A stretch of 43,537 bases of DNA, from the IMG/VR virus record IMGVR_UViG_3300022936_000004, positions 1-43,537 of that record. One strand, given 5' to 3'. Made by a program: the position numbers and the translations under genes. Below the pieces are notes generated by a model that worked only from the letters and a program-made list of their open reading frames with translations, did no database searches and was not told the origin of the DNA. Origin of the DNA: a virus. Its lineage: Duplodnaviria > Caudoviricetes. This document shows, piece by piece, positions 20,646-39,127 of this stretch. Within the stretch, counting starts at the first letter, position 1; each line of letters begins with the position of its first letter.

Positions 20646-20915
20646 TCATGAGTTTCTACCCCGGCTCTGGCTATCGTGGAAGTCACGCGTGGATTCTGCC
20701 ATCCTTGGGGCAAGCAGCCACAGAGCGCCAGAGACCGTGAATAGCAATCCCGCACTAAGGGCGCTTTCCCACCAATGCGCCGTGTTGCCATGGTAGTTGC
20801 AGATGGCCGTAAACAAGGCTCCGGCTGCGAGAATCAGAACGCCACAAGAGAACGTGCGGATATGCCGCATCTCTTGCCGGATTGCCCAATCTGTCCGCCA
20901 GTTCTCCATACTCAT
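20646..20915 (-). CDS. Two-TM membrane protein
   Basis: Two hydrophobic segments; AAGGA RBS. Confidence 0.55.
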   Translation of the reverse strand: MSMENWRTDWAIRQEMRHIRTFSCGVLILAAGALFTAICNYHGNTAHWWESALSAGLLFTVSGALWLLAPRMAESTRDFHDSQSRGRNS

Positions 20916-20918
20916 TCC

Positions 20919-21203
20919 TTATACCTTTGGAGGGGAGGGTGTGCAAGGGTTGGTGCGTACGGTGTGGGCGTCCGAGCAATCCCATGCCCGAATGTCAGGC
21001 ACCTCTCCGGCCCGACCGCAGGCATAACCGACCTCAAGACCCTCTTTGAACGCCTCCTCAACAAGCAAGGATAGACGTTCGATCTCGGTGGCTGCTTCGT
21101 CGCCGTCGGGGTTGCGCGGGACGGTAACTGGGCGAGACCATCCCTGCTCTGGGACCTGAATCACCCGCTTCGACCGCAGCCGTTCCAGTAGCCCTTCATT
21201 CAT
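20919..21203 (-). CDS. Hypothetical protein (start revised to MNEGLLERL)
   Basis: LLERLR...PRNPDGDEAATEIERL motif common in phage accessory genes. Confidence 0.6.
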   Translation of the reverse strand: MNEGLLERLRSKRVIQVPEQGWSRPVTVPRNPDGDEAATEIERLSLLVEEAFKEGLEVGYACGRAGEVPDIRAWDCSDAHTVRTNPCTPSPPKV

Positions 21204-22101
21204 GGGTGGTGTCCTTGCTGGCAGGGGTGGGCGTCTGCCCGTTGGGCACCGCGCTTTCGCCTTCGGTCGAGCCACTGCGTGTCTCGCCGCTTCGCGCTTC
21301 AATCGCTGACGCTTGCTCGTGCAGCCAGTTCCATGCGCCAGTCAGAGCGCGCGCGATCTGCGGGCTATTCGGACTCGTGCCAGTGTGGCAGATCACGGTT
21401 CCGCTGCCTTCGATGTAGAGGCCGTGCATATGCTGCGGGCCGCTCTGGTCGAAATAGGCGGTGGTCAGCTTGACGCTCTCCGCGACATGGTTTGCGTGGC
21501 CGTCAGCGTCGAACGCCTCGGTCTGGCCCCACTCCGCAATGCCGACCTTCAGCACGATCTCGCGGATATCATCCGGAATGTCCGCGCTAGGGATCGTACC
21601 GGCGGAGCCGACAAGACCCGCAGGGGCTTCGCCCGAAGGGGTAGAGCCCGGGTCCGAAGGACAGCGCCCATCCTCAGGTCGATCCATCAGGACTGTACCA
21701 GAGGAGGCGCGGAGAGCTTCGGCGACCGCGTTCCAGTAGGTGCGTTCAGTGTCCGCGACAGGGTAGCGGTGAAAATCGCCGTCAGGCTGGCCGACCTTGA
21801 TCGCGGCTTCAATCGCCTCGTCCTCCACCAAGCTGGTGCTATGCTCGGGAGTTGGACGGGTGAGGTTTTCGAGGTGCGAGACTTCCCAGCCATCGACCAG
21901 ATCGCCATTGCAGACCGGAGGCCATTTCTCCGATATGGTGATGTCGTAACCGCCCATCATCTCGGGCGCGTACCGGATCGCGACGACATGCGCTTCAACG
22001 TCCCGCCAATCCGCCGCGTAGGCCATGGGCAGCAAATGTGATTTGCAGAATACGAGGTCACCAATCTGGTGAGGACACGGCAGGTGCTTCGGCTCACCCA
22101 T
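21196..22101 (-). CDS. Mosaic hypothetical protein containing two translated structured repeats
   Basis: 301 aa; elements E2 and E1 are read in frame. Confidence 0.6.
   Translation of the reverse strand: MGEPKHLPCPHQIGDLVFCKSHLLPMAYAADWRDVEAHVVAIRYAPEMMGGYDITISEKWPPVCNGDLVDGWEVSHLENLTRPTPEHSTSLVEDEAIEAAIKVGQPDGDFHRYPVADTERTYWNAVAEALRASSGTVLMDRPEDGRCPSDPGSTPSGEAPAGLVGSAGTIPSADIPDDIREIVLKVGIAEWGQTEAFDADGHANHVAESVKLTTAYFDQSGPQHMHGLYIEGSGTVICHTGTSPNSPQIARALTGAWNWLHEQASAIEARSGETRSGSTEGESAVPNGQTPTPASKDTTHE
21230..21312 (-). repeat. Structured repeat element E1
   Basis: GCGTCAGCGATTGAAGCGCGAAGCGGCGAGACACGCAGTGGCTCGACCGAAGGCGAAAGCGCGGTGCCCAACGGGCAGACGCC. Confidence 0.85.
21584..21668 (+). repeat. 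Structured repeat element E2 (inverted partner of E1)
   Basis: GCGCTAGGGATCGTACCGGCGGAGCCGACAAGACCCGCAGGGGCTTCGCCCGAAGGGGTAGAGCCCGGGTCCGAAGGACAGCGCC. Confidence 0.75.
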
Positions 22102-22441
22102 GGGATATTCCTTCGTTGATGAGGGCGGGATGCGAAACGTCGATCGCGTAAACCAGCTCGGGGTTCGGCCCGAAATGCGGGTGTGTGATCGTGCGGATCA
22201 TCTCGCCGCGATATTGCCGGGTCAGCCGGGTCACGCCCTCGACGCCACCAGCCTTCGGATAGCCTCGCGTCAGCACGACATGGCGATAGGACCGGTTGCG
22301 CAGGCGCTTGATCCAGTACGGCGTGACGAGCCGGTATTCCTCCAGCTTTTCGCCGCTCGCGATCTGGTCGAAATAGACACCCTTCACTGGGATGGTGAGG
22401 TCCTTCGTCAGCCCCGCCGCAACTTGTGGAATGGTGGTCAT
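22094..22441 (-). CDS. ASCH/PUA-like domain protein
   Basis: L-x-VKGVYFDQIASGEKLEEYRL...YWIKRL...RGYP. Confidence 0.8.
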   Translation of the reverse strand: MTTIPQVAAGLTKDLTIPVKGVYFDQIASGEKLEEYRLVTPYWIKRLRNRSYRHVVLTRGYPKAGGVEGVTRLTRQYRGEMIRTITHPHFGPNPELVYAIDVSHPALINEGISHG

Positions 22442-22641
22442 GCGGGCTGATCCTTGAACCAACAGAACGGCTCGCGAGGCCAGTGGATGTAGTGATGCGC
22501 CTCGCCCTCAGGGCCGTCGTAGCGGCTGATAACGAGGACGGTGTTGCCTGCCGTCCAAAACCACGCCTTCACGCGGTCGTAGGCGACCTGAGACGTGCTA
22601 TCGTCGCGATAAAGGGTAAGTTTGCGCTCGGTGCGGGGCAT
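22438..22641 (-). CDS. Hypothetical protein (MPRTERKLTLY...)
   Basis: Translationally coupled on both sides. Confidence 0.55.
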   Translation of the reverse strand: MPRTERKLTLYRDDSTSQVAYDRVKAWFWTAGNTVLVISRYDGPEGEAHHYIHWPREPFCWFKDQPA

Positions 22642-23012
22642 CAGAAGCCTCCCGTCTTGGAGTGCTGAACGCAAAACAGCCCGCCAAGCCCGTGGCCATC
22701 TCGGCGTTTGCAGCGAAACAGGTGCAGTACGAGCGATCCCCGTCCAGCGTACCCAGCGCAGCGCCCCGGCGACCACCGCTGTGGCTCATGGTCCTCCATG
22801 AAGCACTCGTAGTGCCGAGATTTGACGCGCTCTATCTCAGCCGCTCGCGCGCGCTCCTCAATGATCCCCTCCCTATCAGGGACGGTGGGACGGGAGAGGG
22901 CTTCAGCGGCGCGAAGCATGGCACGGCGCGCGGTGTGCGGGATGCCCGACACCAATGACGTGTCGCACAGGGTGCGCAGCTCCGCGATCAGCGCTTCATC
23001 TGGGGTGGTCAT
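22641..23012 (-). CDS. Hypothetical protein with C-terminal Cys/His motif
   Basis: RCKRRDGHGLGGLFCVQH. Confidence 0.55.
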   Translation of the reverse strand: MTTPDEALIAELRTLCDTSLVSGIPHTARRAMLRAAEALSRPTVPDREGIIEERARAAEIERVKSRHYECFMEDHEPQRWSPGRCAGYAGRGSLVLHLFRCKRRDGHGLGGLFCVQHSKTGGF

Positions 23013-23974
23013 TTGCCTGCATCCCCGTTCGTTGTGGTGCGGGTGACTATTGCGATAGCCTCTTCAGGGGGCGCATCGCGGGGTATGCCCGAGCGCTCGA
23101 CCATGTTTCTGCCGAGTTTGACCGTTGCTTCCTGAACGCGCCTATCGTCAGCATCCGGCAACGGGTAGGTATCAGATGCCCAACCAGTCGTGTCGGTGAG
23201 CATGAGGTACATTCCGTTCGTCCACAGGGGCTGCTCGGAAAGAACTTCGAAAGCGCCTTTGAGCGCGGACAGGCAATCTAGAACGGCCCGATCATAGGCC
23301 TCACCCTTTGCGCCTTCGAAGGCCGGGGTGAAGTTCGCAGCCGCCCGTGCACGCACGGCAATCAGGGGCGCGAACAGCGGATGATCCTCATCCCGAGCGT
23401 ACGGGTCCAAGGCTGGCACGAACACTCCCGCCACCCGCTCGACTTCCCCCGAAGGATCGGAGGGGGTGGCGGCATAAGGCACGATGGTCCACGCATCTTC
23501 GTCTTCGCGGTGGACCGCTTCCGCGTCCTCACGGCGAGCATAACGGGTCGCCTGTTCGCGGTCGGCGGTCCAATCGCTCATGCCGTCCGACCAAGTGCGC
23601 CACCGCTTACCGTCGCCGGAACCGACGATCCAGCCAAGGGGAGCCGCTTCCACCCCACCGGACGGATGGGGATGGGAGAGGGCGGCGCGAACCGCTGTCC
23701 AGTACGCCCGCTCCGTGTCCTGTATCGGGTTAAAGCGGAAGTCGCGGGTAGGCGGCACGGTGTTGGGCCACGCTGATACCTTGATCGCCGCGATAATCGC
23801 AGCATCGGACAGCATCACCCCTTCGCTGGATGCCGTGGATGGCGGGGCCGGGGTTTCGGCGAGACTGGCTTCGATCAGGTCTGCCGCCGTGTCGAAATCG
23901 TCCCCGAGAGGTTCGCCGTCCCGAAATCGCTCGATCAGTGCCCGCGCTTCTGACGCATTGTGGGGGGATTTCAT
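23009..23974 (-). CDS. Mosaic hypothetical protein
   Basis: 321 aa with several short domains joined by Pro/Ser linkers. Confidence 0.6.
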   Translation of the reverse strand: MKSPHNASEARALIERFRDGEPLGDDFDTAADLIEASLAETPAPPSTASSEGVMLSDAAIIAAIKVSAWPNTVPPTRDFRFNPIQDTERAYWTAVRAALSHPHPSGGVEAAPLGWIVGSGDGKRWRTWSDGMSDWTADREQATRYARREDAEAVHREDEDAWTIVPYAATPSDPSGEVERVAGVFVPALDPYARDEDHPLFAPLIAVRARAAANFTPAFEGAKGEAYDRAVLDCLSALKGAFEVLSEQPLWTNGMYLMLTDTTGWASDTYPLPDADDRRVQEATVKLGRNMVERSGIPRDAPPEEAIAIVTRTTTNGDAGK

Positions 23975-24312
23975 GCTGGGGTTTCCTGCTCGCTCGATGC
24001 GGTGGAAGGGGTGCGGATGATCTCAGCCATGCGTGCGAAGCGCAGTATTTGGGAAAGCCCGCTAGGCGATGCCCAATTCTCGCAAAATTCGATGACGGCC
24101 TGATCGGTCCATTCAGTTGCCCGCTCTTCCGCTACTGCTTGTTGACGGTGACGGGCGAGAAGCAGGATCACCCAGTCGTAATCGCCGCCCGCATTGGTTC
24201 CCGCGCGAATCCAACCCGCATAGTCAGGATCGCGGAAATACGAGTACAGGCCAGCCGCAGCATCACGATCCGTCTGGTTCACTTCTACCGTTTCGGGAAG
24301 GGTGTTGGTCAT
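23971..24312 (-). CDS. Hypothetical protein (MTNTLPETVEV...)
   Basis: ATGA-coupled to the upstream ORF. Confidence 0.55.
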   Translation of the reverse strand: MTNTLPETVEVNQTDRDAAAGLYSYFRDPDYAGWIRAGTNAGGDYDWVILLLARHRQQAVAEERATEWTDQAVIEFCENWASPSGLSQILRFARMAEIIRTPSTASSEQETPA

Positions 24313-24782
24313 GAGGGGTCTCCAGATGGAGTTTGGGCGTCTGGCTGCGCCACCGCGCTCTCGCCTACGGCTGCGCCCGTTCCGGTCGCATCGCTTCGCG
24401 CTTCGATCGCTGACGCGTGAGTTTCGAGAGCCGCCGCTAGTTCGCGAAGCTGGCAAGCATCATCGAACGGGCACTCTCCCCTGTCGGACAGGGGGCACTC
24501 GGAAACACCGGTGGTCCAGTCCATGGGACTGACGCGCGCGCATCCCGGTTCGCAATCGATCCGGTCAGCTACAGCACGCAGCACGTCCACCGATGCGCCG
24601 CGATGTTCGACCTTCAAGGTGTAAACAGCATCCCGATACTCGACCATCTGCCGAAAGCGGAGTTCGCTCGACGCCTTGTATTGGTCGCGCTCTTCGATGA
24701 TGCGCTGCCTCTCACCGCGCGCCATCCACCACCAACGGCGAACGACGTTGCGGGTGTCGCGGATTGCCCGTCCAACTTTCAT
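24309..24782 (-). CDS. Hypothetical protein ending in translated element E3
   Basis: C-terminus ASAIEARSDATGTGAAVGESAV. Confidence 0.55.
   Translation of the reverse strand: MKVGRAIRDTRNVVRRWWWMARGERQRIIEERDQYKASSELRFRQMVEYRDAVYTLKVEHRGASVDVLRAVADRIDCEPGCARVSPMDWTTGVSECPLSDRGECPFDDACQLRELAAALETHASAIEARSDATGTGAAVGESAVAQPDAQTPSGDPS
24336..24416 (-). repeat. Structured repeat element E3
   Basis: GCGTCAGCGATCGAAGCGCGAAGCGATGCGACCGGAACGGGCGCAGCCGTAGGCGAGAGCGCGGTGGCGCAGCCAGACGCC. Confidence 0.85.
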
Positions 24783-25012
24783 TTCGCCCTCCTGAGAAGA
24801 TGCGCCAGTTCAAGCGCGCTACGCACGTGACTCATGATGATCTGATCGTCGCTGGAAACCGACTGCATGACCGCCGCGCCAAGGTGGGCGATGATTTCCG
24901 CAATCACATCCGCGCTAGGGATTGAAGCCGGGACGGGCGAGACAGCTTGCTGGCTCGATGCCGAAGGCACGAAAGCCCGGTCCGGTACGGAAGCGCCATT
25001 ATCCTCGCTCAT
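24779..25012 (-). CDS. Hypothetical protein beginning with antisense element E4
   Basis: N-terminus ...VSPVPASIPSAD. Confidence 0.5.
   Translation of the reverse strand: MSEDNGASVPDRAFVPSASSQQAVSPVPASIPSADVIAEIIAHLGAAVMQSVSSDDQIIMSHVRSALELAHLLRRAK
24912..24997 (+). repeat. Structured repeat element E4 (inverted partner of E3)
   Basis: GCGCTAGGGATTGAAGCCGGGACGGGCGAGACAGCTTGCTGGCTCGATGCCGAAGGCACGAAAGCCCGGTCCGGTACGGAAGCGCC. Confidence 0.85.
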
Positions 25013-25218
25013 GATGCCCCACCCTCCTTGCGGAGATGGGAGGCTACTTGCTGGCCGAGGGGCGCTAGCTCCACATAGGTCAGACAGAGAGCGTGCAACT
25101 GGCGAGCGATCCCCGGCTTGTCTCGTGCCAGATCGTCCATCGTCCAGTTGTCGTTATCCACTAACGCCGCCCGCTGCGCCTTCGTGAGGCTTGCGACTAT
25201 CTCAGCTACATCGGTCAT
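25009..25218 (-). CDS. Small winged-helix-like hypothetical protein
   Basis: LTKAQRAAL...LAPLGQQVASHL; similar to 26765-27025. Confidence 0.55.
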   Translation of the reverse strand: MTDVAEIVASLTKAQRAALVDNDNWTMDDLARDKPGIARQLHALCLTYVELAPLGQQVASHLRKEGGAS

Positions 25219-25562
25219 GATGGAGTTCCTTGGTGGGCACGGGCCTTCAGGGCCGCTGCGCAGATCGCCAGTGGGATGCTGTTGCAGGCGTTTTCGCCGT
25301 AGAAAGGGTAGCCGTCCGCACCGTGGTTCATGTTGATCGTGACGCGCGCGACCCGATAGAGCGTCGTGATTTCGATCTCGTCGCGCATGTCGGCGTGAAC
25401 CAGCGTCATTGCTGCGTCGATGGAGGCGGTGTAATGCGGACCGAGATCACCTCGCTGCCCACGCCTCAGCACGTAAGCGCTTTGCAAGATGGCCGCATCA
25501 AGTTCGCGATCCGGACCCGTCGCAGACTCACACCGAGCCGCCAGTTCGTTCAGATCACCCAC
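25215..25562 (-). CDS. Phage ABA-sandwich-like domain protein
   Basis: GPDRELDAAI...PHYTASIDAAMTLV...PLAICAAALKA. Confidence 0.65.
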   Translation of the reverse strand: MGDLNELAARCESATGPDRELDAAILQSAYVLRRGQRGDLGPHYTASIDAAMTLVHADMRDEIEITTLYRVARVTINMNHGADGYPFYGENACNSIPLAICAAALKARAHQGTPS

Positions 25563-26064
25563 GATCAGCCTCCATCTTACCTTGAGGGGTGGTCTCGTGT
25601 TCGCCGCATCCGCGACCGATCAGTTCGCCATGCGCGCCAGCAGTGAAGTCCTGCCACGACACGAATCCTTGCGGGCAATGGAAGCCCCAATCGCGAACCT
25701 TCGGGCCAGGGAAAAACAGCGAGATGCAGGGCTTGCCGCCAACCAGTTCAAGGCGATGGCTGTCCGTCGCCCTCCGATGAATCAGCGCGCCAGCCTCACG
25801 GAGAAACGTTCCATCCGGCGTGATTTCGCGGTATGCCCCGGCAAGCAGAAGCGAGACGTTATCCCACGGATGATCGTGCAGCGCGCGGTCGTCGTCATCG
25901 CGCAGGATTTCGTGCAGATAGACGTTCTGGAACTCATTGCGCGGAACGATCCACCAACGCCGCAGATAGGCCGGATCGCCGATCACGAAGTCGGGGCCGT
26001 GGATCATCTTGGCGCGCGCCCATGCGGCCATGTCGCCAATATCGGTGTAATCGAGACGGCTCAC
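25555..26064 (-). CDS. Cupin-fold phage protein
   Basis: YLRRW...YLH...DDDRALHDHPW...GAYRE...HRLEL...WGF. Confidence 0.7.
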   Translation of the reverse strand: MSRLDYTDIGDMAAWARAKMIHGPDFVIGDPAYLRRWWIVPRNEFQNVYLHEILRDDDDRALHDHPWDNVSLLLAGAYREITPDGTFLREAGALIHRRATDSHRLELVGGKPCISLFFPGPKVRDWGFHCPQGFVSWQDFTAGAHGELIGRGCGEHETTPQGKMEADRG

Positions 26065-26768
26065 TTCCCCTCTCCCATCTTACCCTTGGTGGGGGAGAGG
26101 AGGGCGCGGGCGACGTGTCGAGCGCGCGACTGGTCCTTCCAGTTGTTGCCAGCGATCTGCTCCAGCCCCTCTCGTAGCTGGCGGATTTCAGCTATTAGGG
26201 TGGGGGCTTGGTTGCGGAGTTCCGAGATAAGGGCTGCGTTGGCGGCGCTTTCGCGGTTGAAGGCATCGTCACCCGGCACCTTCGGATCGATTGCCGAATG
26301 GTGCACGTAGTTGAGGCTTGCGATTGATCGTCCCGATGAAGCGACAACCGGCCAGCCAACAACCGTAGATGGCTTTGCGGCGGCAATCCAAGGCCCCGGC
26401 GTCGCTTCCGCCAGCAGTTTCTCTATATGGTCGATATTGGTCGCGATATCAGTAGGCTGCGGCGCATTCTCCGTAGCCGGAGAACCGGGCTTTCGTCCTT
26501 CGGACTGAGCCACCTTCGGCGTCTCATCGGTTCCCGCTTCAATCCCTTGCGAGATGACGCGGTAACGCACAATGTCGGCGTGCTGGTAGCCGTACCCAGT
26601 TTTGGCGTAGGGGGCAGGAGTATACTCCCACCAATTCCAGCTTTGGCCGAATTTACCCGCGTTGTCGGTCTCCTCATACCCATCGCGGCACTCAACCTCG
26701 ACCAGCGCCTCAGGATCGACAGGGCATTCCCCACCGTTCCATTCTATCCATTGAGGAGTGTTGGTCAT
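26061..26768 (-). CDS. Two-domain accessory protein (WIEWNGGECPV domain + Ead/Ea22-like domain) joined by element E5
   Basis: ATPGPW...ANAALI...NQAPTLIAEIRQLR at the C-terminus; the linker is E5. Confidence 0.65.
   Translation of the reverse strand: MTNTPQWIEWNGGECPVDPEALVEVECRDGYEETDNAGKFGQSWNWWEYTPAPYAKTGYGYQHADIVRYRVISQGIEAGTDETPKVAQSEGRKPGSPATENAPQPTDIATNIDHIEKLLAEATPGPWIAAAKPSTVVGWPVVASSGRSIASLNYVHHSAIDPKVPGDDAFNRESAANAALISELRNQAPTLIAEIRQLREGLEQIAGNNWKDQSRARHVARALLSPTKGKMGEGK
26461..26552 (-). repeat. Structured repeat element E5
   Basis: TCGCAAGGGATTGAAGCGGGAACCGATGAGACGCCGAAGGTGGCTCAGTCCGAAGGACGAAAGCCCGGTTCTCCGGCTACGGAGAATGCGCC. Confidence 0.85.
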
Positions 26769-27949: not shown

Positions 27950-28261
27950 TCACTCTTCCTCCATTGCCTTGGTTATCCATGCGCCATAGCAATCCCGATG
28001 ATCCCACGGGAGGAAGGGATAGGGCGTCCCGTCCTTTCGCTCCTGTGCAGCGCCAAGATGGAAGCCGTGCTTGTACGCATCGGGAGCAATGACCTTTAGC
28101 GCCGCCATACCCCACGGAGCCAGCAAGCGGTTCATATCCTCGTCGCTCAGCTTGGCGTTCTCTTCCTCCGTGAATTGTGCTCTCATCCCCTCACGTAAGG
28201 TTCCTAGTCCCTCTATAGGCTCGTCTAGGATAGAGGAGGTTACTTTGTGGATTAGGGTCAT
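27950..28261 (-). CDS. Hypothetical protein
   Basis: 103 aa, coupled. Confidence 0.55.
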   Translation of the reverse strand: MTLIHKVTSSILDEPIEGLGTLREGMRAQFTEEENAKLSDEDMNRLLAPWGMAALKVIAPDAYKHGFHLGAAQERKDGTPYPFLPWDHRDCYGAWITKAMEEE

Positions 28262-28749
28262 GATACTGTCCTTTCGGCGTCTGCCTGCGGCACCGCGCTT
28301 TCGTCTGCGATCAAGCCAGCTTCGCCGTCTTGCCCCTTACGGGCTTCAATCGCTGACGCACGGGTATGTCCGAGCCTGTGCGCTGCAGGGTGGTGTCCTG
28401 CGCTCTTAATCTGGTTCCCAATGCGCAAAGTGCGCTCCGGTGCGATGAGATGGGCAAAGGCAACCGCGTCTCTCGCATGACTATCGTTTGGGTAGCTGGT
28501 CGCATAAAGCAACAAGCAGTCCACATGATTAAAGGCCCACCACCGCAGACTTTCAACCTCATCGGTCAGCCGCGCATTGGCCGCTCGCTCGCTATCCAGC
28601 GTTGTTACGGCTTCGTGGTATTCTCTACCCTTCTCGGTGAGAATTGCCATCTGGGCCTCCAGCGAGGCGCACAGCGTACGATAGGCCCGGTTCTGCGCCA
28701 GTAGACCCTCCCTCGTTTCGGGAATCGGCGCTTTTGCTGCGCTGCTCAT
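28258..28749 (-). CDS. Coiled-coil hypothetical protein ending in element E6
   Basis: LDSERAANARLTDEVE; C-terminus ASAIEARKGQDGEAGLIADESAV. Confidence 0.6.
   Translation of the reverse strand: MSSAAKAPIPETREGLLAQNRAYRTLCASLEAQMAILTEKGREYHEAVTTLDSERAANARLTDEVESLRWWAFNHVDCLLLYATSYPNDSHARDAVAFAHLIAPERTLRIGNQIKSAGHHPAAHRLGHTRASAIEARKGQDGEAGLIADESAVPQADAERTVS
28276..28359 (-). repeat. Structured repeat element E6
   Basis: GCGTCAGCGATTGAAGCCCGTAAGGGGCAAGACGGCGAAGCTGGCTTGATCGCAGACGAAAGCGCGGTGCCGCAGGCAGACGCC. Confidence 0.85.
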
Positions 28750-28799: not shown

Positions 28800-29246
28800 G
28801 GGTTCCGCCTCTAGTGGCCCCTACCTGAGGGCTAGTTCCTCAGTCAGACCGGTGGCAGTGTCACTATCATCTTTGAGCTGTCTTTAACGATGGTGGTTTC
28901 TAATCCTGAGATTAGACCTGCCATCTACTGCGATGGGTTTTAACGTCTCCCCTGACGCTAGTGGCCGACCGTCTGCCGTCGTCGCTTAGTTCGTTTATGC
29001 CAGTTTCGAGGCCGCAGTTTATCCCTAGCGCGATGCCGCATCGGGAGCCGGAACCGATCTGCCCCTATTTCCGGGCAGGCAAAGTTGCCGACAGCTTCCG
29101 TCAGTTTAAACTACCTGATTGACCAGCAGGCTGTGCGAGGGAGGCTCGGCACTGTTGAGCGCGATTATGTCGCTCGGCTGTCTAACCCTCACTTGGACCC
29201 TTGATTACGGCTCAACGTCCACTCCAAAGCCGGTTGGAGGGACGTT
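28800..29246 (+). ncRNA. ~450-nt ORF-free, hairpin-dense element (candidate ncRNA or replication origin)
   Basis: At least eight stems, with G-U/G-T pairs that favour the + strand; possible promoter GTGATA-N17-CATAAT at 28769-28797. Confidence 0.5.
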
Positions 29247-32018: not shown

Positions 32019-32468
32019 TCATCCATTGAGTTTCTCCCGAAGCGCCATGGCATCCCACCACGCGTTATGCTGGACAGCGCCTTCAAGCGTCGTTGGGTAG
32101 CAATCAACGTTGTGGACCTCGAACGTCATCTGCGGGTATTCCGCCGATGCCCATCCGCCAGTCGGCGAAGTCGTCATTGCGGCGCAGAATCGGCCAATAT
32201 CGACAGGGCTATCAGCGACAATAACGGGGTGTTCGGAAGGGCCGATAAACTCGCGGATAACCGTACCGACGTGGTTTACATCCACCCTCCAGTTGAGCGT
32301 GGCTTGATGCATGCCCATGATCGGAATAACGTTGGCGATGACCCACGGATCGCGGACCTCGGCATTCGTGCGGATGTGAATGCTGCGCCCATCTTCGCGA
32401 ACAAGAGCGATACTCAGCAGCGGCCCATCGTGACCGTCAAACTCGCAATCGATATAATAGCGGCTCAT
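32019..32468 (-). CDS. DEDDh 3'-5' exonuclease-like protein (Rv2179c-like)
   Basis: YIDCEFDG, SIALV, WVIANVIP, HNAWWDA. Confidence 0.75.
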   Translation of the reverse strand: MSRYYIDCEFDGHDGPLLSIALVREDGRSIHIRTNAEVRDPWVIANVIPIMGMHQATLNWRVDVNHVGTVIREFIGPSEHPVIVADSPVDIGRFCAAMTTSPTGGWASAEYPQMTFEVHNVDCYPTTLEGAVQHNAWWDAMALREKLNG

Positions 32469-33613: not shown

Positions 33614-33703
33614 CTTATTGCACATAGCGCAACGCCTCGCAATCAGCTTATTTTCACACCACGCAAAATAGTGCTTGCACGCCACGCAAACCGAGCGCAT
33701 AAC
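33614..33703. promoter_or_regulatory. Divergent early promoters with three 15-bp operator-like repeats TT(G/T)CAC-N4-CGCAA
   Basis: Repeats at 33618-33632, 33652-33666, 33675-33689; rightward TTGCAC-N17-CATAAC at 33675-33703; leftward TTGCGA at 33642-33637. Confidence 0.7.
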
Positions 33704-33737
33704 CCTGACATCGCCGCAGTGGCGAAGGAGGAAGACG

Positions 33738-34325
33738 ATGGCGAAGCTTAGCAAGAATACCCGCGAGCGCATGGCGAAGGCGCTGGTCCGTCATCGCTAC
33801 CAGGGCCGCGCTGACGAACTGCTGGTGGAAAGCGCCGCCTTGTTCGATGCGGTCTATGAGGCGCGCTACGATGCGCCAACGCGCTCGTTGATGGGCAAGC
33901 TGGAAAAGCTGCACCCGAAAGCATTCTCTACCGCCAACCAGTTCATGATCAACGCTCGCGGGATGCGGGTCGGCATCGGCGCTTACGCAGTCGGTATCTA
34001 CGCTCTCGTGCGCTGGGAGCAGAACCTGCCAAACCGCTCCGTCTTCGACCGATACAATGAAACCGCTCCCGAGGAGCTTGTGGATCGTATCGCAGAGTTC
34101 GGCCTTTCCACGAAAGCCTTCGATGACGCGGTGAAGCAAGCCTATACCCGCGCGCTCGGCACGATCAATCAGTTCGGCACCGCCAAGCGGCTTGCCGAGG
34201 AATGGCCCGAAGCCATGCCCATCATCGGCGAACTGATCCCGACCGAGGACCGCACCCTGCCCGTCGTGCAGCTTGAAGCGATCAACGACGAGTTCGGCCT
34301 GCCGCCATCGGATATCGCAGCGTAA
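33738..34325 (+). CDS. Nmad5-family (nucleotide modification associated domain 5)-like protein
   Basis: KLSKNTRERMA...TAKRLAEEWPEA...LPVVQLEAINDEFGLP; AGGAGG RBS. Confidence 0.7.
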   Translation: MAKLSKNTRERMAKALVRHRYQGRADELLVESAALFDAVYEARYDAPTRSLMGKLEKLHPKAFSTANQFMINARGMRVGIGAYAVGIYALVRWEQNLPNRSVFDRYNETAPEELVDRIAEFGLSTKAFDDAVKQAYTRALGTINQFGTAKRLAEEWPEAMPIIGELIPTEDRTLPVVQLEAINDEFGLPPSDIAA

Positions 34326-34960: not shown

Positions 34961-35286
34961 CACTCACTGAATCAATAGAGCAAGCCTCCCTCTGGAAGGT
35001 AGAGGCTTATCCGGTAATCAAGGCTTACCTGCTCGCCGTCGAGGCGCGGGATGTGCTGGCCGGTGCGAGTACGATCACAGGGCAATACCTCGCCCACTCG
35101 TTTCTGAGGCAGGCGTACGCCCACATCGAGGAACTGCGTGAGCAGGCGATAGAGCACAATTCCGGCATCTTCCTCGACACCATGACAGACGAGCAATGGC
35201 GTGAGGCCGAAGCCTTCAGTGAGGAACTCAATCGTTCTGTTCCTACTGTTATAGATGCTATTAGGGAGGTGGAAAGTGAAGGATAA
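34957..35286 (+). CDS. Hypothetical protein (MTLTESIEQ...)
   Basis: Coupled start. Confidence 0.55.
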   Translation: MTLTESIEQASLWKVEAYPVIKAYLLAVEARDVLAGASTITGQYLAHSFLRQAYAHIEELREQAIEHNSGIFLDTMTDEQWREAEAFSEELNRSVPTVIDAIREVESEG

Positions 35287-35740
35287 TCAAGGCGTTACCC
35301 CTGAGGGGGTCGGGCTTTCGCCTGCTACGCAGGTCGAGCCAGTGCCTGTCTCGCCGGTTCCCGCTTCAATCCCTAACGCGGCCTCGCCCAGCCCGTGGAA
35401 GGCGTGTAGAAATGGCGACTGTTCGTGTGGCCAGATTTGGTCCGTTCCGGCAGACCATCCCGTTGCGACGGTCGATGGTCCAGAATGGGGTGACACGCTA
35501 TGGGTGCCGCTCCAGAACGAGGACGGCTCTCTGGATGTCCGGCGAGAATTTCACGCATACGGTTCGTTCCCTGCCGAAACGCGCAAGGCCAACATTCTAC
35601 TGATGACCGCCGCGCCTGAACTGTTACAGGCCACCTTGGCGCTCTATGCGCTGATCGCGACCGATGCGCGCTATGAAGGCAGCGAGTGCGCGGACCTTGC
35701 ACGAGAGGCCATCGCCAAGGCAACGGGAGTAACCCCATGA
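35276..35740 (+). CDS. Hypothetical protein beginning with antisense element E7
   Basis: GGAGG RBS, GTG start; SPSPW...ANILLMTAAPELL...AIAKATG. Confidence 0.6.
   Translation: MKDNQGVTPEGVGLSPATQVEPVPVSPVPASIPNAASPSPWKACRNGDCSCGQIWSVPADHPVATVDGPEWGDTLWVPLQNEDGSLDVRREFHAYGSFPAETRKANILLMTAAPELLQATLALYALIATDARYEGSECADLAREAIAKATGVTP
35291..35379 (-). repeat. Structured repeat element E7
   Basis: GCGTTAGGGATTGAAGCGGGAACCGGCGAGACAGGCACTGGCTCGACCTGCGTAGCAGGCGAAAGCCCGACCCCCTCAGGGGTAACGCC. Confidence 0.85.
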
Positions 35741-36339: not shown

Positions 36340-36421
36340 GGCGATGCCTTTCAGGCCCGCGCTATCATCGCTTCGCGACCGAGCCTAAAGTCTCGGCCCT
36401 CCGGGTTTCTATCGCTATCGC
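36340..36421 (-). repeat. Structured repeat element E8
   Basis: GCGATAGCGATAGAAACCCGGAGGGCCGAGACTTTAGGCTCGGTCGCGAAGCGATGATAGCGCGGGCCTGAAAGGCATCGCC. Confidence 0.8.
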
Positions 36422-36744: not shown

Positions 36745-36824
36745 GCGATAGCGACACTCAGCCGTAGGCTGGAGACGGCGAAGCTGGCTCCACTCGGGAG
36801 TGGCGTGGGCCGCAAGGCATCGCC
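36745..36824 (+). repeat. Structured repeat element E9 (variant; inverted partner of E8)
   Basis: GCGATAGCGACACTCAGCCGTAGGCTGGAGACGGCGAAGCTGGCTCCACTCGGGAGTGGCGTGGGCCGCAAGGCATCGCC; shares AGACGGCGAAGCTGGCT exactly with E6. Confidence 0.8.
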
Positions 36825-37069: not shown

Positions 37070-37242
37070 CCCTCACCATCAACGGTCCATTGGCTTATGA
37101 AAAGCACAAGGCAGTAGCTACCAAGGGTCTCATGACGGACACCTACTGGACAGCGTCCGATGGGATAGCAACCGGATATGGTGATACGAAAGACAAGGCT
37201 CGGCGTGAGTATCGGCGCATTACGGCATGGAGGCGGAAATGA
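37066..37242 (+). CDS. 58-aa hypothetical protein (not in the ORF track)
   Basis: ATGA overlaps at both ends; G-x-GDTK motif. Confidence 0.5.
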   Translation: MTLTINGPLAYEKHKAVATKGLMTDTYWTASDGIATGYGDTKDKARREYRRITAWRRK

Positions 37243-37724
37243 GGCACGATCTAACCATGATGCAGGTGCAGGCCGTCACGACGATGCTGCGCGATCAATT
37301 CGGCGATGACGATGAGCGCTTGCTACTCGATACGCTGGAGGGTGAAACCGACCTGTTCGAGCTGGTCCGCAAGCTACTCGACGGCATCGAAACCGACGAA
37401 GGCGATAAGGCGATCCTAGCCGAGCAGATGGATGCGCGCAAGGTTCGCCGGGATCGCTGTGATGCCCGGATCAAGGCGCGACGTGAGGCTGTGGCAGCTC
37501 TGCTGGAATGCGCGGGGCTGGATAAGCTCTCGCTGGCAGAGGCTACCCTGTCGCTGCGCAAGATGGCCCCCAAGCCGATTGTGACCGACGCCGAGGCGCT
37601 ACCGGATGAGTTCGTGACGTTCACGCGGAAACCCAATCTGGCGGCGATCAAGGAAGCCCAGACGATGCCCCCCGGCGTGGCGCTCGATAATGGTGGAACC
37701 TCGCTGACCATTCGTAGGAAATAG
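37239..37724 (+). CDS. Siphovirus Gp157-like protein
   Basis: DTLEGETD, coiled coil, D-x-LPDEF...KPN..AIKEA..PGV.L....SLTIR. Confidence 0.75.
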   Translation: MRHDLTMMQVQAVTTMLRDQFGDDDERLLLDTLEGETDLFELVRKLLDGIETDEGDKAILAEQMDARKVRRDRCDARIKARREAVAALLECAGLDKLSLAEATLSLRKMAPKPIVTDAEALPDEFVTFTRKPNLAAIKEAQTMPPGVALDNGGTSLTIRRK

Positions 37725-37727
37725 GCC

Positions 37728-38348
37728 ATGACCGAAACGATGCGGATATGGGATGCCGTCTCTAAGACGAATCCCGCTCATACAAAACAGGTCAACCAGC
37801 GCGGCGGCTTCACGGCTATCAGCGCGAACTACCAGATCATGCGCGCTACCGAGGTGTTCGGTCCTATCGGCATCGGCTGGGGCTATGACTGCGCAGAGCC
37901 GATCTTTCAGGAAACCTTGATGATCGTCCCAGTCACGTTCTGGCACGGCGACCGCTCCAACACCTTCGGGCCAATCTACGGCTGCGAGGAATGGAAGGAC
38001 AAGAATGGCCGCGTTGACAGCGATGCGCCGAAAAAGGCCATGACGGACGGAATTACCAAGGCACTGTCTCAGCTCGGGTTCAACGCCGACGTGTTCCTTG
38101 GCATGTACGACGATAACAAATACGTCGAGCGCCTGAAGCGGGAATTTGCGGAGGACAAAAAAGAGCCTTTGATCGACGACGCACAATGGGCCGACATCGC
38201 TGGCCTGATCGCCGCGACGAAGACAAGCAGCCCCGTGCTGTGTGAAAACTACAAGGTGGCATCCCTCAAGGAATTGACGGTGAGCCAGTACGAACACGCT
38301 AGGGGCATCCTGCTCAAGCGCATCACGAACGAAGAGAAGGTGGCTTAG
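37728..38348 (+). CDS. Rad52-like single-strand annealing protein
   Basis: TEVFGPIGIGW, DAPKKAMTDGITKALSQLGFNADVFLG; position before ssb. Confidence 0.65.
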   Translation: MTETMRIWDAVSKTNPAHTKQVNQRGGFTAISANYQIMRATEVFGPIGIGWGYDCAEPIFQETLMIVPVTFWHGDRSNTFGPIYGCEEWKDKNGRVDSDAPKKAMTDGITKALSQLGFNADVFLGMYDDNKYVERLKREFAEDKKEPLIDDAQWADIAGLIAATKTSSPVLCENYKVASLKELTVSQYEHARGILLKRITNEEKVA

Positions 38349-38351
38349 CCA

Positions 38352-38771
38352 ATGCAGATCATCACCATTTCCGGCAACCTTGGCCGCGATCCAGAGATGC
38401 GCTCTACGCAGGGAGGGGATACCGTTCTCTCGTTCAGCGTCGGCGTTCAGAACGGCTTCGGTCGGGACTCCGGCAGTAACTGGTATCGCTGCTCCGTGTG
38501 GGGCAAGCGTGCCGACTCGCTCAATTCGATCATGCGCAAGGGACAACGGGTTTTCGTGACCGGCGCGCTGACTATCGGCGAATACAACGGCAAGCCGCAA
38601 TATGACGTGCGGGTGTCCGAGGTGGACGTTGTGAAGGGTGTCGGCAATAGCGACACCCCTAGCGATGAACCTCGTCAGACGGGCGGCGGTGGTGGCGGTT
38701 ACACCAATGACGATCTAGACGACGATGTACCGTTTGCTCATCCCTATCCCGGTAGGAATAGGAATATCTGA
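38352..38771 (+). CDS. ssb: Single-stranded DNA-binding protein
   Basis: GNLGRDPE, W-x-R-x-x-VWGK, KG..V.V.G, acidic DDDVPF tail. Confidence 0.92.
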   Translation: MQIITISGNLGRDPEMRSTQGGDTVLSFSVGVQNGFGRDSGSNWYRCSVWGKRADSLNSIMRKGQRVFVTGALTIGEYNGKPQYDVRVSEVDVVKGVGNSDTPSDEPRQTGGGGGGYTNDDLDDDVPFAHPYPGRNRNI

Positions 38772-39127
38772 TGCTGCCAGCCCGCATTCCGAAAAAGGCC
38801 AAGCGCGCGACCCGGTGGAAGTCTCAGGCACATCGCGATTTTGTCCGCTCCCACGGCTGCTGCAAATGTGGCTCTACGGCTGCAATTGAGTTTGCGCACG
38901 TGCGGCTCGGGTCGGGTGCGGGCATGGGGCAAAAACCGGATGACTGGCGCGGTGTCAGCCTATGCCACGAATGCCACACCGGATCAGCCACCGCTCAGCA
39001 TAACGTTGGCGAGCGCTCGTTTTGGGTCGGCATTGATCTGGACGGGCTGATTGCGGCTTTCATCAAAGCCAGCCCGCGCCGCGCTCAGATTGAGCAAGCC
39101 ATGAGGGAGCGAGATAATGGATATTGA
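38771..39127 (+). CDS. DUF968-like putative HNH nuclease
   Basis: FVRSHGCCKCG, AHVR, GMGQKPDD, LCHECH. Confidence 0.7.
   Translation: MLPARIPKKAKRATRWKSQAHRDFVRSHGCCKCGSTAAIEFAHVRLGSGAGMGQKPDDWRGVSLCHECHTGSATAQHNVGERSFWVGIDLDGLIAAFIKASPRRAQIEQAMRERDNGY

Follow-up and report, generated by a model that had tools for sequence, protein, structure and literature searches.

The 301-codon reading frame at positions 21196 to 22101 of the phage genome analysed here consists of two modules with a cassette gene fused behind them; it is not one protein into which a domain was dropped. The cassette is bracketed by two facing copies of a DNA element that is real, occurs widely and has apparently not been described before. 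Small mosaic proteins of unexplained origin abound in phage accessory regions, and copies of this element family form visible joints where protein modules were exchanged in frame. A natural DNA element combining a perfect four-way junction with extra-stable mini-hairpins, as predicted here, would also be unusual in itself.

The window (the whole stretch of DNA analysed, 43,537 nt) is a complete circular phage with a terminal direct repeat of 127 nt and genes for P22-like portal, coat and stabilisation proteins and for a terminase. An annotated relative, Sphingopyxis phage VSN-002, bears four copies of the element and suggests that the window belongs to a phage of Alphaproteobacteria. The source contig, possibly the same data as the window, has no indel or joint in the region of the 301-aa ORF; one DNA run, possibly the source, contains the stretch, and no RNA run containing it is listed. 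Megablast returned no close relative of the window phage, the downstream gene gave no relative either, and coat searches gave four distant loci only. An empty or swapped version of the E1/E2 slot is thus lacking for comparison, as is an unbiased control set of element-free phages.

Element copies and the three-module reading frame

Nine copies of the element, 66-95 nt long, are present in the window, all within 21-37 kb and none among the virion genes (Table 1). A covariance model scored them between 49.6 and 85.3 bits, the next best match reaching 17.9; the training set of the model comprised seven of them, all but E5 and E9. Chance is ruled out as their origin. There are three facing pairs (E1/E2, E3/E4 and E8/E9), of which E1/E2 alone is read through in both copies; neither E8/E9 (gap 323) nor E3/E4 (gap 495) is. 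The domains on either side of the unpaired E5 are phrog_9174 (aa 6-79) and phrog_722 (aa 113-216). Part of the E3/E4 cargo (24420-24909) has an element-free homologue in phage Mvi-Yong1342-1 (L100:13576-13895). Over 12 nt, the plus-strand sequence ATCCCTAGCGCG at 29021-29032 agrees with the 5' end of the element read in antisense; it is not matched by the covariance model and is a possible remnant.

Table 1. Positions of the mosaic reading frame, its parts and the nine element copies in the window.
Feature	Positions	Strand	Remarks
Mosaic ORF, 301 aa	21196-22101	-	module A, module B, then cassette gene from Met140
Module A, about aa 1-85	21847-22101	-	relative: P0031, with a different C-terminus
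Module B, about aa 90-135	21697-21834	-	paralogous stretch in ORF 23009-23974
Met140	21685-21687	-	six codons before antisense E2; usual cassette-gene start position
Cargo, 271 bp, 90-aa module	21313-21583	-	invariant VxCHTGTSPN, WN
E1	21231-21312	-	closing stem GCGTC...GACGC; translated sense as ASAIEAR...; 84.9 bits, in training set
E2	21584-21667 (closing stem)	sense on +	GCGCT...AGCGC; translated antisense; 71.2 bits, in training set
E3	24337-24416	-	C-terminal tail of ORF 24309-24782; faces E4
E4	24912-24996	+	antisense near start of ORF 24779-25012
E5	26462-26552	-	unpaired; joins two domains inside ORF 26061-26768 as an in-frame linker; 67 bits, outside training set
E6	28277-28359	-	unpaired; C-terminal tail of ORF 28258-28749
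E7	35292-35379	-	unpaired; antisense near start of ORF 35255-35740 (+)
E8	36341-36421	-	faces E9 around gene with own start and stop
E9	36745-36823	+	shortened copy; 49.6 bits, outside training set

Met1 of the 301-aa ORF is preceded by AAGGA, which resembles a ribosome-binding site. Residues 8-105 match protein P0031 (53%, weak past about residue 83), and residues 83-130 match the product of ORF 23009-23974 (43%, E=2e-8), a 321-aa mosaic protein without elements that has module B in common with the 301-aa ORF. Met140 lies within a TGATG overlap with the stop of an alternative-frame ORF (21687-21908). From this codon the order is antisense peptide, cargo, sense peptide and, 11 codons later, the stop, which leaves nine residues beyond the ASAIEAR...GQTP peptide. 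E2 is translated in antisense as (G)RCPSDPGSTPSGEAPAGLVGSAGTIPSA and E1 in sense as ASAIEARSGETRSGSTEGESAVPNGQTP; the distance from inner G to inner G is 271 bp, and the CGCC ends point outward. This read-through had been recognized in a preliminary description, and the sequence confirms it.

Searched segment by segment, the protein breaks up at the element ends, as that description had anticipated. All 29 homologues match essentially the cargo (about aa 175-264), the two upstream segments have separate relatives, and a collinear full-length homologue was looked for and not found among proteins of 165-527 aa. The cargo module occupies N-terminal, internal or C-terminal positions in otherwise different mosaic proteins. 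By eye, 28 of the 29 homologues are devoid of element peptides; P0002 alone has them, with the sense peptide at the same cargo boundary as in the 301-aa protein, and one locus (L001/G046) carries the module without any element. Neither the 301-aa ORF nor its cargo could be assigned to a family in PHROGs, Pfam or a PDB sequence search. Modelling of the cargo predicted three helices and a short hairpin (pLDDT 76, pTM 0.53). A metallo-beta-lactamase-like assignment was discarded, as the atlas matches at 0.91 have just 108-128 of 256 features in common.

The frame relationships extend to other phages. In facing pairs up to 700 bp apart, the gap is of the form 3n+1 in 36/52 cases (p=1e-7), and 25 of the 52 pairs read through both copies. 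A stop occurs within 25 codons past the sense element in 23 of these 25, and an ATG or GTG within 12 codons ahead of the antisense element in 21; the element peptides are thus usually N- and C-terminal tails. In none of the other 24 does the open frame extend as far upstream as in the window ORF. Canonical frames are free of stops in 204/248 copies in sense and 184/248 in antisense. Internal linkers do exist, E5 being one, and about 11 of 72 sense-only read-throughs run for at least 50 codons further. A small word-based search with the element peptide found four proteins, each of which carries the sense peptide C-terminally; three of them, by eye, begin with the antisense peptide. The peptides align with little conservation (mean column identity 34%) while the base pairs are kept.

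Altogether, the anatomy given in the preliminary description was right and its insertion model in part right. Insertion of a domain inside a protein does not hold as a rule, given the starts and stops that hug the read-through pairs, nor do flexible linkers: peptides are usually tails, and the window protein itself ends nine residues past the sense peptide. That the elements are free of stops in the frames used applies to most copies, and the facing pairs are indeed frame-biased. The suggested database search for linker peptides did retrieve proteins, all carrying the sense peptide as a tail. E8 and E9 do face each other like E1 and E2, but an antisense copy upstream and a sense copy downstream are automatic for any facing pair, whichever strand is read. 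The idea that cassette movement builds multidomain proteins is borne out by the three-module fusion in the window; such fusions are nevertheless a minority outcome, and in most cases the cargo moves without the pair.

Predicted fold and copies in conjugative plasmids

Viral stretches were collected by two exact patterns, which yielded 98 and at least 129. An alignment of 67 copies has 93.8% of 1,720 cells paired (71.3% when shuffled), 366 two-sided changes (116 when shuffled) and 11 G-U cells, figures to be read with the fact that the loci were gathered by patterns derived from the element and that the structure was drawn from the same sequences it was scored on. In the predicted fold, a 5-bp closing stem, P1 (GCGNN/NNCGC, then CC), closes a three-way junction with P2 and P6, while P2, P3, P4 and P5 meet in a four-way junction that has no spare bases if G.A pairs are allowed. 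P2 and P4 each contain the motif G-C, A.G, Y-R, with the A.G mismatch in both. The covariation supports such a perfect four-way plus three-way junction.

GNA triloops number 537 on the sense strand of 248 copies, 11 on the antisense strand and 15 in the flanks; GNA and GNNA mini-hairpins are described as stable in DNA (PMC3201870, PMC13037366). Under DNA parameters, in none of the nine window copies does the antisense strand fold better than the sense strand. Single-sequence z-scores are modest (DNA, -0.03 to -2.6), and Rfam gave no match at gathering score at the elements of the window and of eight plasmid or genome loci. We infer, on good support, that the element acts as single-stranded DNA. 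G is scarce at positions -1 and -2 of the element (1% and 5%), which may reflect simple avoidance of pairing with the conserved 3' CC. The GG/GA bulge was considered as a guide and dropped: it does not covary with the flanks, and guide pairing to them was not seen. A variant in seven loci (L004, L047, L057, L061, L073, L076 and L098) keeps the four-way junction with a different closing region, CCCC/CCGG with a GATAAGGTCC-like tail, which suggests a subfamily.

A pattern scan of bacterial genomes, from whose counts fold-less chance matches to the exact pattern were left out, found copies beside ParB-like, DUF932, SSB and KorA genes. When two plasmid copies were compared to PLSDB by blastn, 1,425 and 1,461 records were obtained, of which 1,267 and 1,309 are conjugative (about 90%, a raw share). 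In eight annotated plasmid loci, 17/17 model matches (42-78 bits) fall on one strand, the first match of each locus being plus by construction. This strand is opposite to most leading-region genes (DUF932, SSB, ParB-like, ArdA, RadC, Acr). In five loci with visible relaxase or coupling genes, the elements read away from these genes, into the leading region. The strand transferred first would read the same way, and these copies are presumed to lie on it. Leading genes are described as encoded on the T-strand (PMC11541004).

Conjugative plasmids with relaxases of several types, IncN plasmids among them, have the element in the leading region. In IncN-type loci, where long leading-region repeats precede ccg/ard operons, it sits at the upstream end of these repeats or 40-110 nt past it. 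Four copies in one plasmid locus (L402) share 94-99% identity over 83-88 nt, and in most pairs neither flank is related. Same-strand direct repeats of the element are found in MOB-F and MOB-P leading regions (L402:4028-8849, L403:5985-10294, L404:7679-13287, L407 and L409), where the copies stand beside CUP-like repeats, often with extra GNA-loop hairpins ahead. As the element is common to phages and plasmid leading regions, a protein binding it would link phage gene shuffling to plasmid establishment.

Exchange of cargo and its possible mechanism

Orientation was counted in 14 whole phage genomes (121 matches), picked for copy number. Neighbours within 1 kb comprise 30 facing, 20 back-to-back and 5 direct cases, a total of 55, compared to 14.9 facing and 25.1 direct expected from strand shuffling. 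Since back-to-back neighbours are also common, the orientation bias is partly a loss of direct repeats.

Five slots have the same two outer flanks, an element at each side and unrelated cargo (L002/L025, L014/L153, L035/L049, L051/L069 and L145/L179). In 15 comparisons, some of them concerning the same slot, the outer flank is common and the inner one unrelated, with the switch 0-5 bases from the first, inner G. The closing-stem type is kept in all 15 (13% expected). Elements are at least 84% identical in nine, whereas 0.6% of random pairs reach 85%, and the element interior is replaced in the other six (60-79% identity). Five other comparisons have the inner flank kept and the outer flank changed. 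An element-free RNase H-like gene at 32019-32468 of the window is a 69% DNA homologue of the facing-pair cargo of L153 (3517-4151), which indicates that donors and captured copies coexist.

Gain or loss of a whole unit is seen as well. L027 (2466-3297) and L375 (16055-16063) compare cleanly as the filled and the empty state of a site. An 11-bp direct repeat lies 5 and 12 nt outside the elements and duplicates the start of the resident gene. Flanking repeats of 9-11 bp, at variable distance, occur in 8/112 pairs (6 distinct) against 0.44 expected, whereas single copies do not differ from the control; besides L027/L375 they comprise five pairs, several near gene starts. No such repeat is present in 104 of the 112 pairs, E1/E2 among them. 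In several relatives an ordinary gene takes the place of the pair, and some of them retain a terminal CGCC. In general, elements mostly stay in place and the cargo changes, gain or loss of whole units being rarer; judging from the family, E1/E2 would behave likewise.

We give about an even chance to the possibility that a protein acting in trans performs a structure-directed cut and rejoining at the foot of the closing stem, a facing pair being a slot for cargo exchange. The folded single-stranded element would act as DNA, one strand at a time, with each strand opened 5' of its own folded copy; two facing copies would then be needed to take in a foreign segment. Less frequent use of the 3' foot would move an element or a whole pair. 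Within a few codons of the pair, the slot would provide a start ahead of the antisense copy and a stop past the sense copy, so that selection would keep cargo of length 3n+1; in the window, the cassette gene would have come to lie in frame behind two other modules, making a three-module protein. Most homologues of the cargo are free of element peptides, and L001 has the module free of elements, so a junction must have been formed at an inner edge. This need, together with the fact that the copies would be poor substrates for Red-type annealing, favours structure-directed cutting and joining. Replaced interiors and changed outer flanks, however, fit annealing between copies equally well. A bolder version, which we put forward tentatively and hold for doubtful, sees in the element a natural single-stranded mimic of a Holliday junction, common to conjugative plasmids and phages of proteobacteria and recognized by an undescribed strand-transfer enzyme. 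Facing pairs would then work as an integrase-free exon-trap, catching whatever open-frame fragment comes between a start and a stop already in place and generating new small genes and fusion proteins.

The main competing view, compatible with cutting and joining, is that the element is in the first place a strand-specific single-stranded signal, probably an ssi-like priming or protective site used by host proteins, the swaps being a by-product of relaxed recombination by phage annealing proteins. It accounts for the strand geometry and leading-region position in plasmids, for the depletion of close direct repeats in phages (5 vs 25), for mosaic elements and swaps on either side, and, since the factor would belong to the host, for the absence of a linked enzyme. 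The plasmid argument is tempered by the sign convention of the first match and by the conjugative share being a raw one. Identity between random copies is 64% and their exact runs have a median of 9 nt, less than the 23-27 nt quoted for Red-beta (PMC3945230); most copies diverge too far for the annealing measured with that protein. Nor does a priming signal explain how element-free modules first become bracketed, or what use tailed dsDNA phages would have for as many as 17 copies pointing both ways. We regard it as possible but a good deal short of probable.

Movement of pair and cargo as one unit, in the manner of a composite transposon inserting into existing genes, would produce the filled/empty site, the excess of 9-11-bp repeats and the relatives with an ordinary gene, some with CGCC, at the place of the pair. 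It is unlikely as the general route: 104 pairs, E1/E2 included, lack a repeat, those at variable distance could be deletion microhomologies, slots with changed cargo are five times as numerous as empty sites, and neither a transposase nor an uninterrupted host protein for the 301-aa ORF was found. Least probable, and to be taken as very unlikely, is that the repeat forms an RNA structure or persists on account of the encoded peptide. Copies inside ORFs are transcribed with them and mostly lack stops in the reading frames used, and E5 is a real internal linker; yet G-U pairs are almost absent, GNA triloops dominate, both senses appear in mRNA, plasmid copies are intergenic and on the template strand, Rfam has no match, and the peptide drifts while the pairing is maintained.

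The search for an enzyme acting on the elements eliminated several candidates and yielded none that accompanies them. The Y1 HUH transposase (PF01797) and the GIY-YIG nuclease (PF01541) were found in 0/5 phage genomes. A tyrosine recombinase (PF00589) was discarded because the window has none, while four other genomes tested have one each. DUF968 occurs in 21/30 near-complete records and is absent from the genome with 17 copies (G040). The window has a recombination cluster at 37227-39127 (Gam-like protein, 206-aa protein, SSB and DUF968 nuclease). The 206-aa protein, which we take to carry a Rad52/Sak-like motif (E=0.36 in a direct comparison), was set aside since a direct search matches just 5/39; the 14-genome protein cluster resulted from single-linkage chaining. 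The window also encodes a nucleotide-modification-associated Nmad5 protein (33675-34325).

Comparison with known systems

No description of the element was found in the literature covered, which was mostly open-access; the element fails the defining tests run for PeSL, CUP, REP and attC. The CUP repeats of IncN plasmids are reportedly the subject of Delver and Belogurov (1997). They are described as direct repeats of more than 400 bp with promoters, and recombination between them is invoked for deletions and inversions (PMC5371602, PMC3490853, PMC6294495). The 85-nt element adjoins CUP-like repeats in IncN loci but lies outside the shared repeat core and is also found solitary, phage copies are 66-95 nt and form facing pairs inside reading frames, and the CUP accounts cited, as far as they go, describe no such fold.

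The PeSL cassettes of T4-like phages are presented as dispersed repeats at which genes are gained, lost or replaced, each an intergenic unit of sigma70 promoter and terminator (PMC2839356). The element resembles them as a dispersed repeat of accessory regions at which genes change, but has no -10 box (TATAAT matched at 5 of 6 positions in 2/249 copies), folds into a multibranch structure of DNA type, faces a partner and is translated. No promoter-like sites were detected in window 20800-25300 and no terminator-like site at an element. The PriA-type primosome motif GAAGCGG is present in 64/249 copies. Frpo/ssi sites are depicted as long AT-rich hairpins that rebuild -35 and -10 boxes on the transferred strand (PMC11541004, PMC12672017). 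The plasmid element would likewise fold on the transferred strand ahead of leading-region genes, but its sole -35-like sequence, TTGAAG, is on an arm pointing into the junction, and TATAAT is as rare as stated. As for the Ssn nuclease (PMC11893778), with SRM repeats on either side of a GIY-YIG gene, no GIY-YIG gene occurs in the five genomes, the SRM pattern having been compared by eye. Composite transposons and MITEs have a target duplication of fixed length directly at their ends; the 9-11-bp repeats found in 8/112 pairs stand at variable distance.

REP and REPIN sequences with their RAYTs, like IS200/IS605 ends, are folded single-stranded sites processed in trans at the stem foot; REPINs are inverted doublets, and REPs have the motif GTAG/GGAG at the 5' foot of a simple palindrome. 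Processing at the stem foot of a folded site is what we propose for the element, but that foot motif appears in 3/249 copies, no Y1 transposase is found in the five genomes, the fold is far more complex and the cargo is gene-sized and in frame. The cores of integron attC sites, RYYYAAC ... GTTRRRY, are found in 0/249 copies on either strand. The element is moreover inverted rather than direct (5 direct among 55 neighbours within 1 kb), the window is without an integrase, and element-bounded cargo is often without its own start and stop. Like attC (PMC5737381), it is predicted to fold on one DNA strand, has conserved mismatches and marks the borders of exchangeable gene cassettes. In sum, the element resembles CUP and PeSL as a shuffling boundary and REP and attC as a folded single-strand site.
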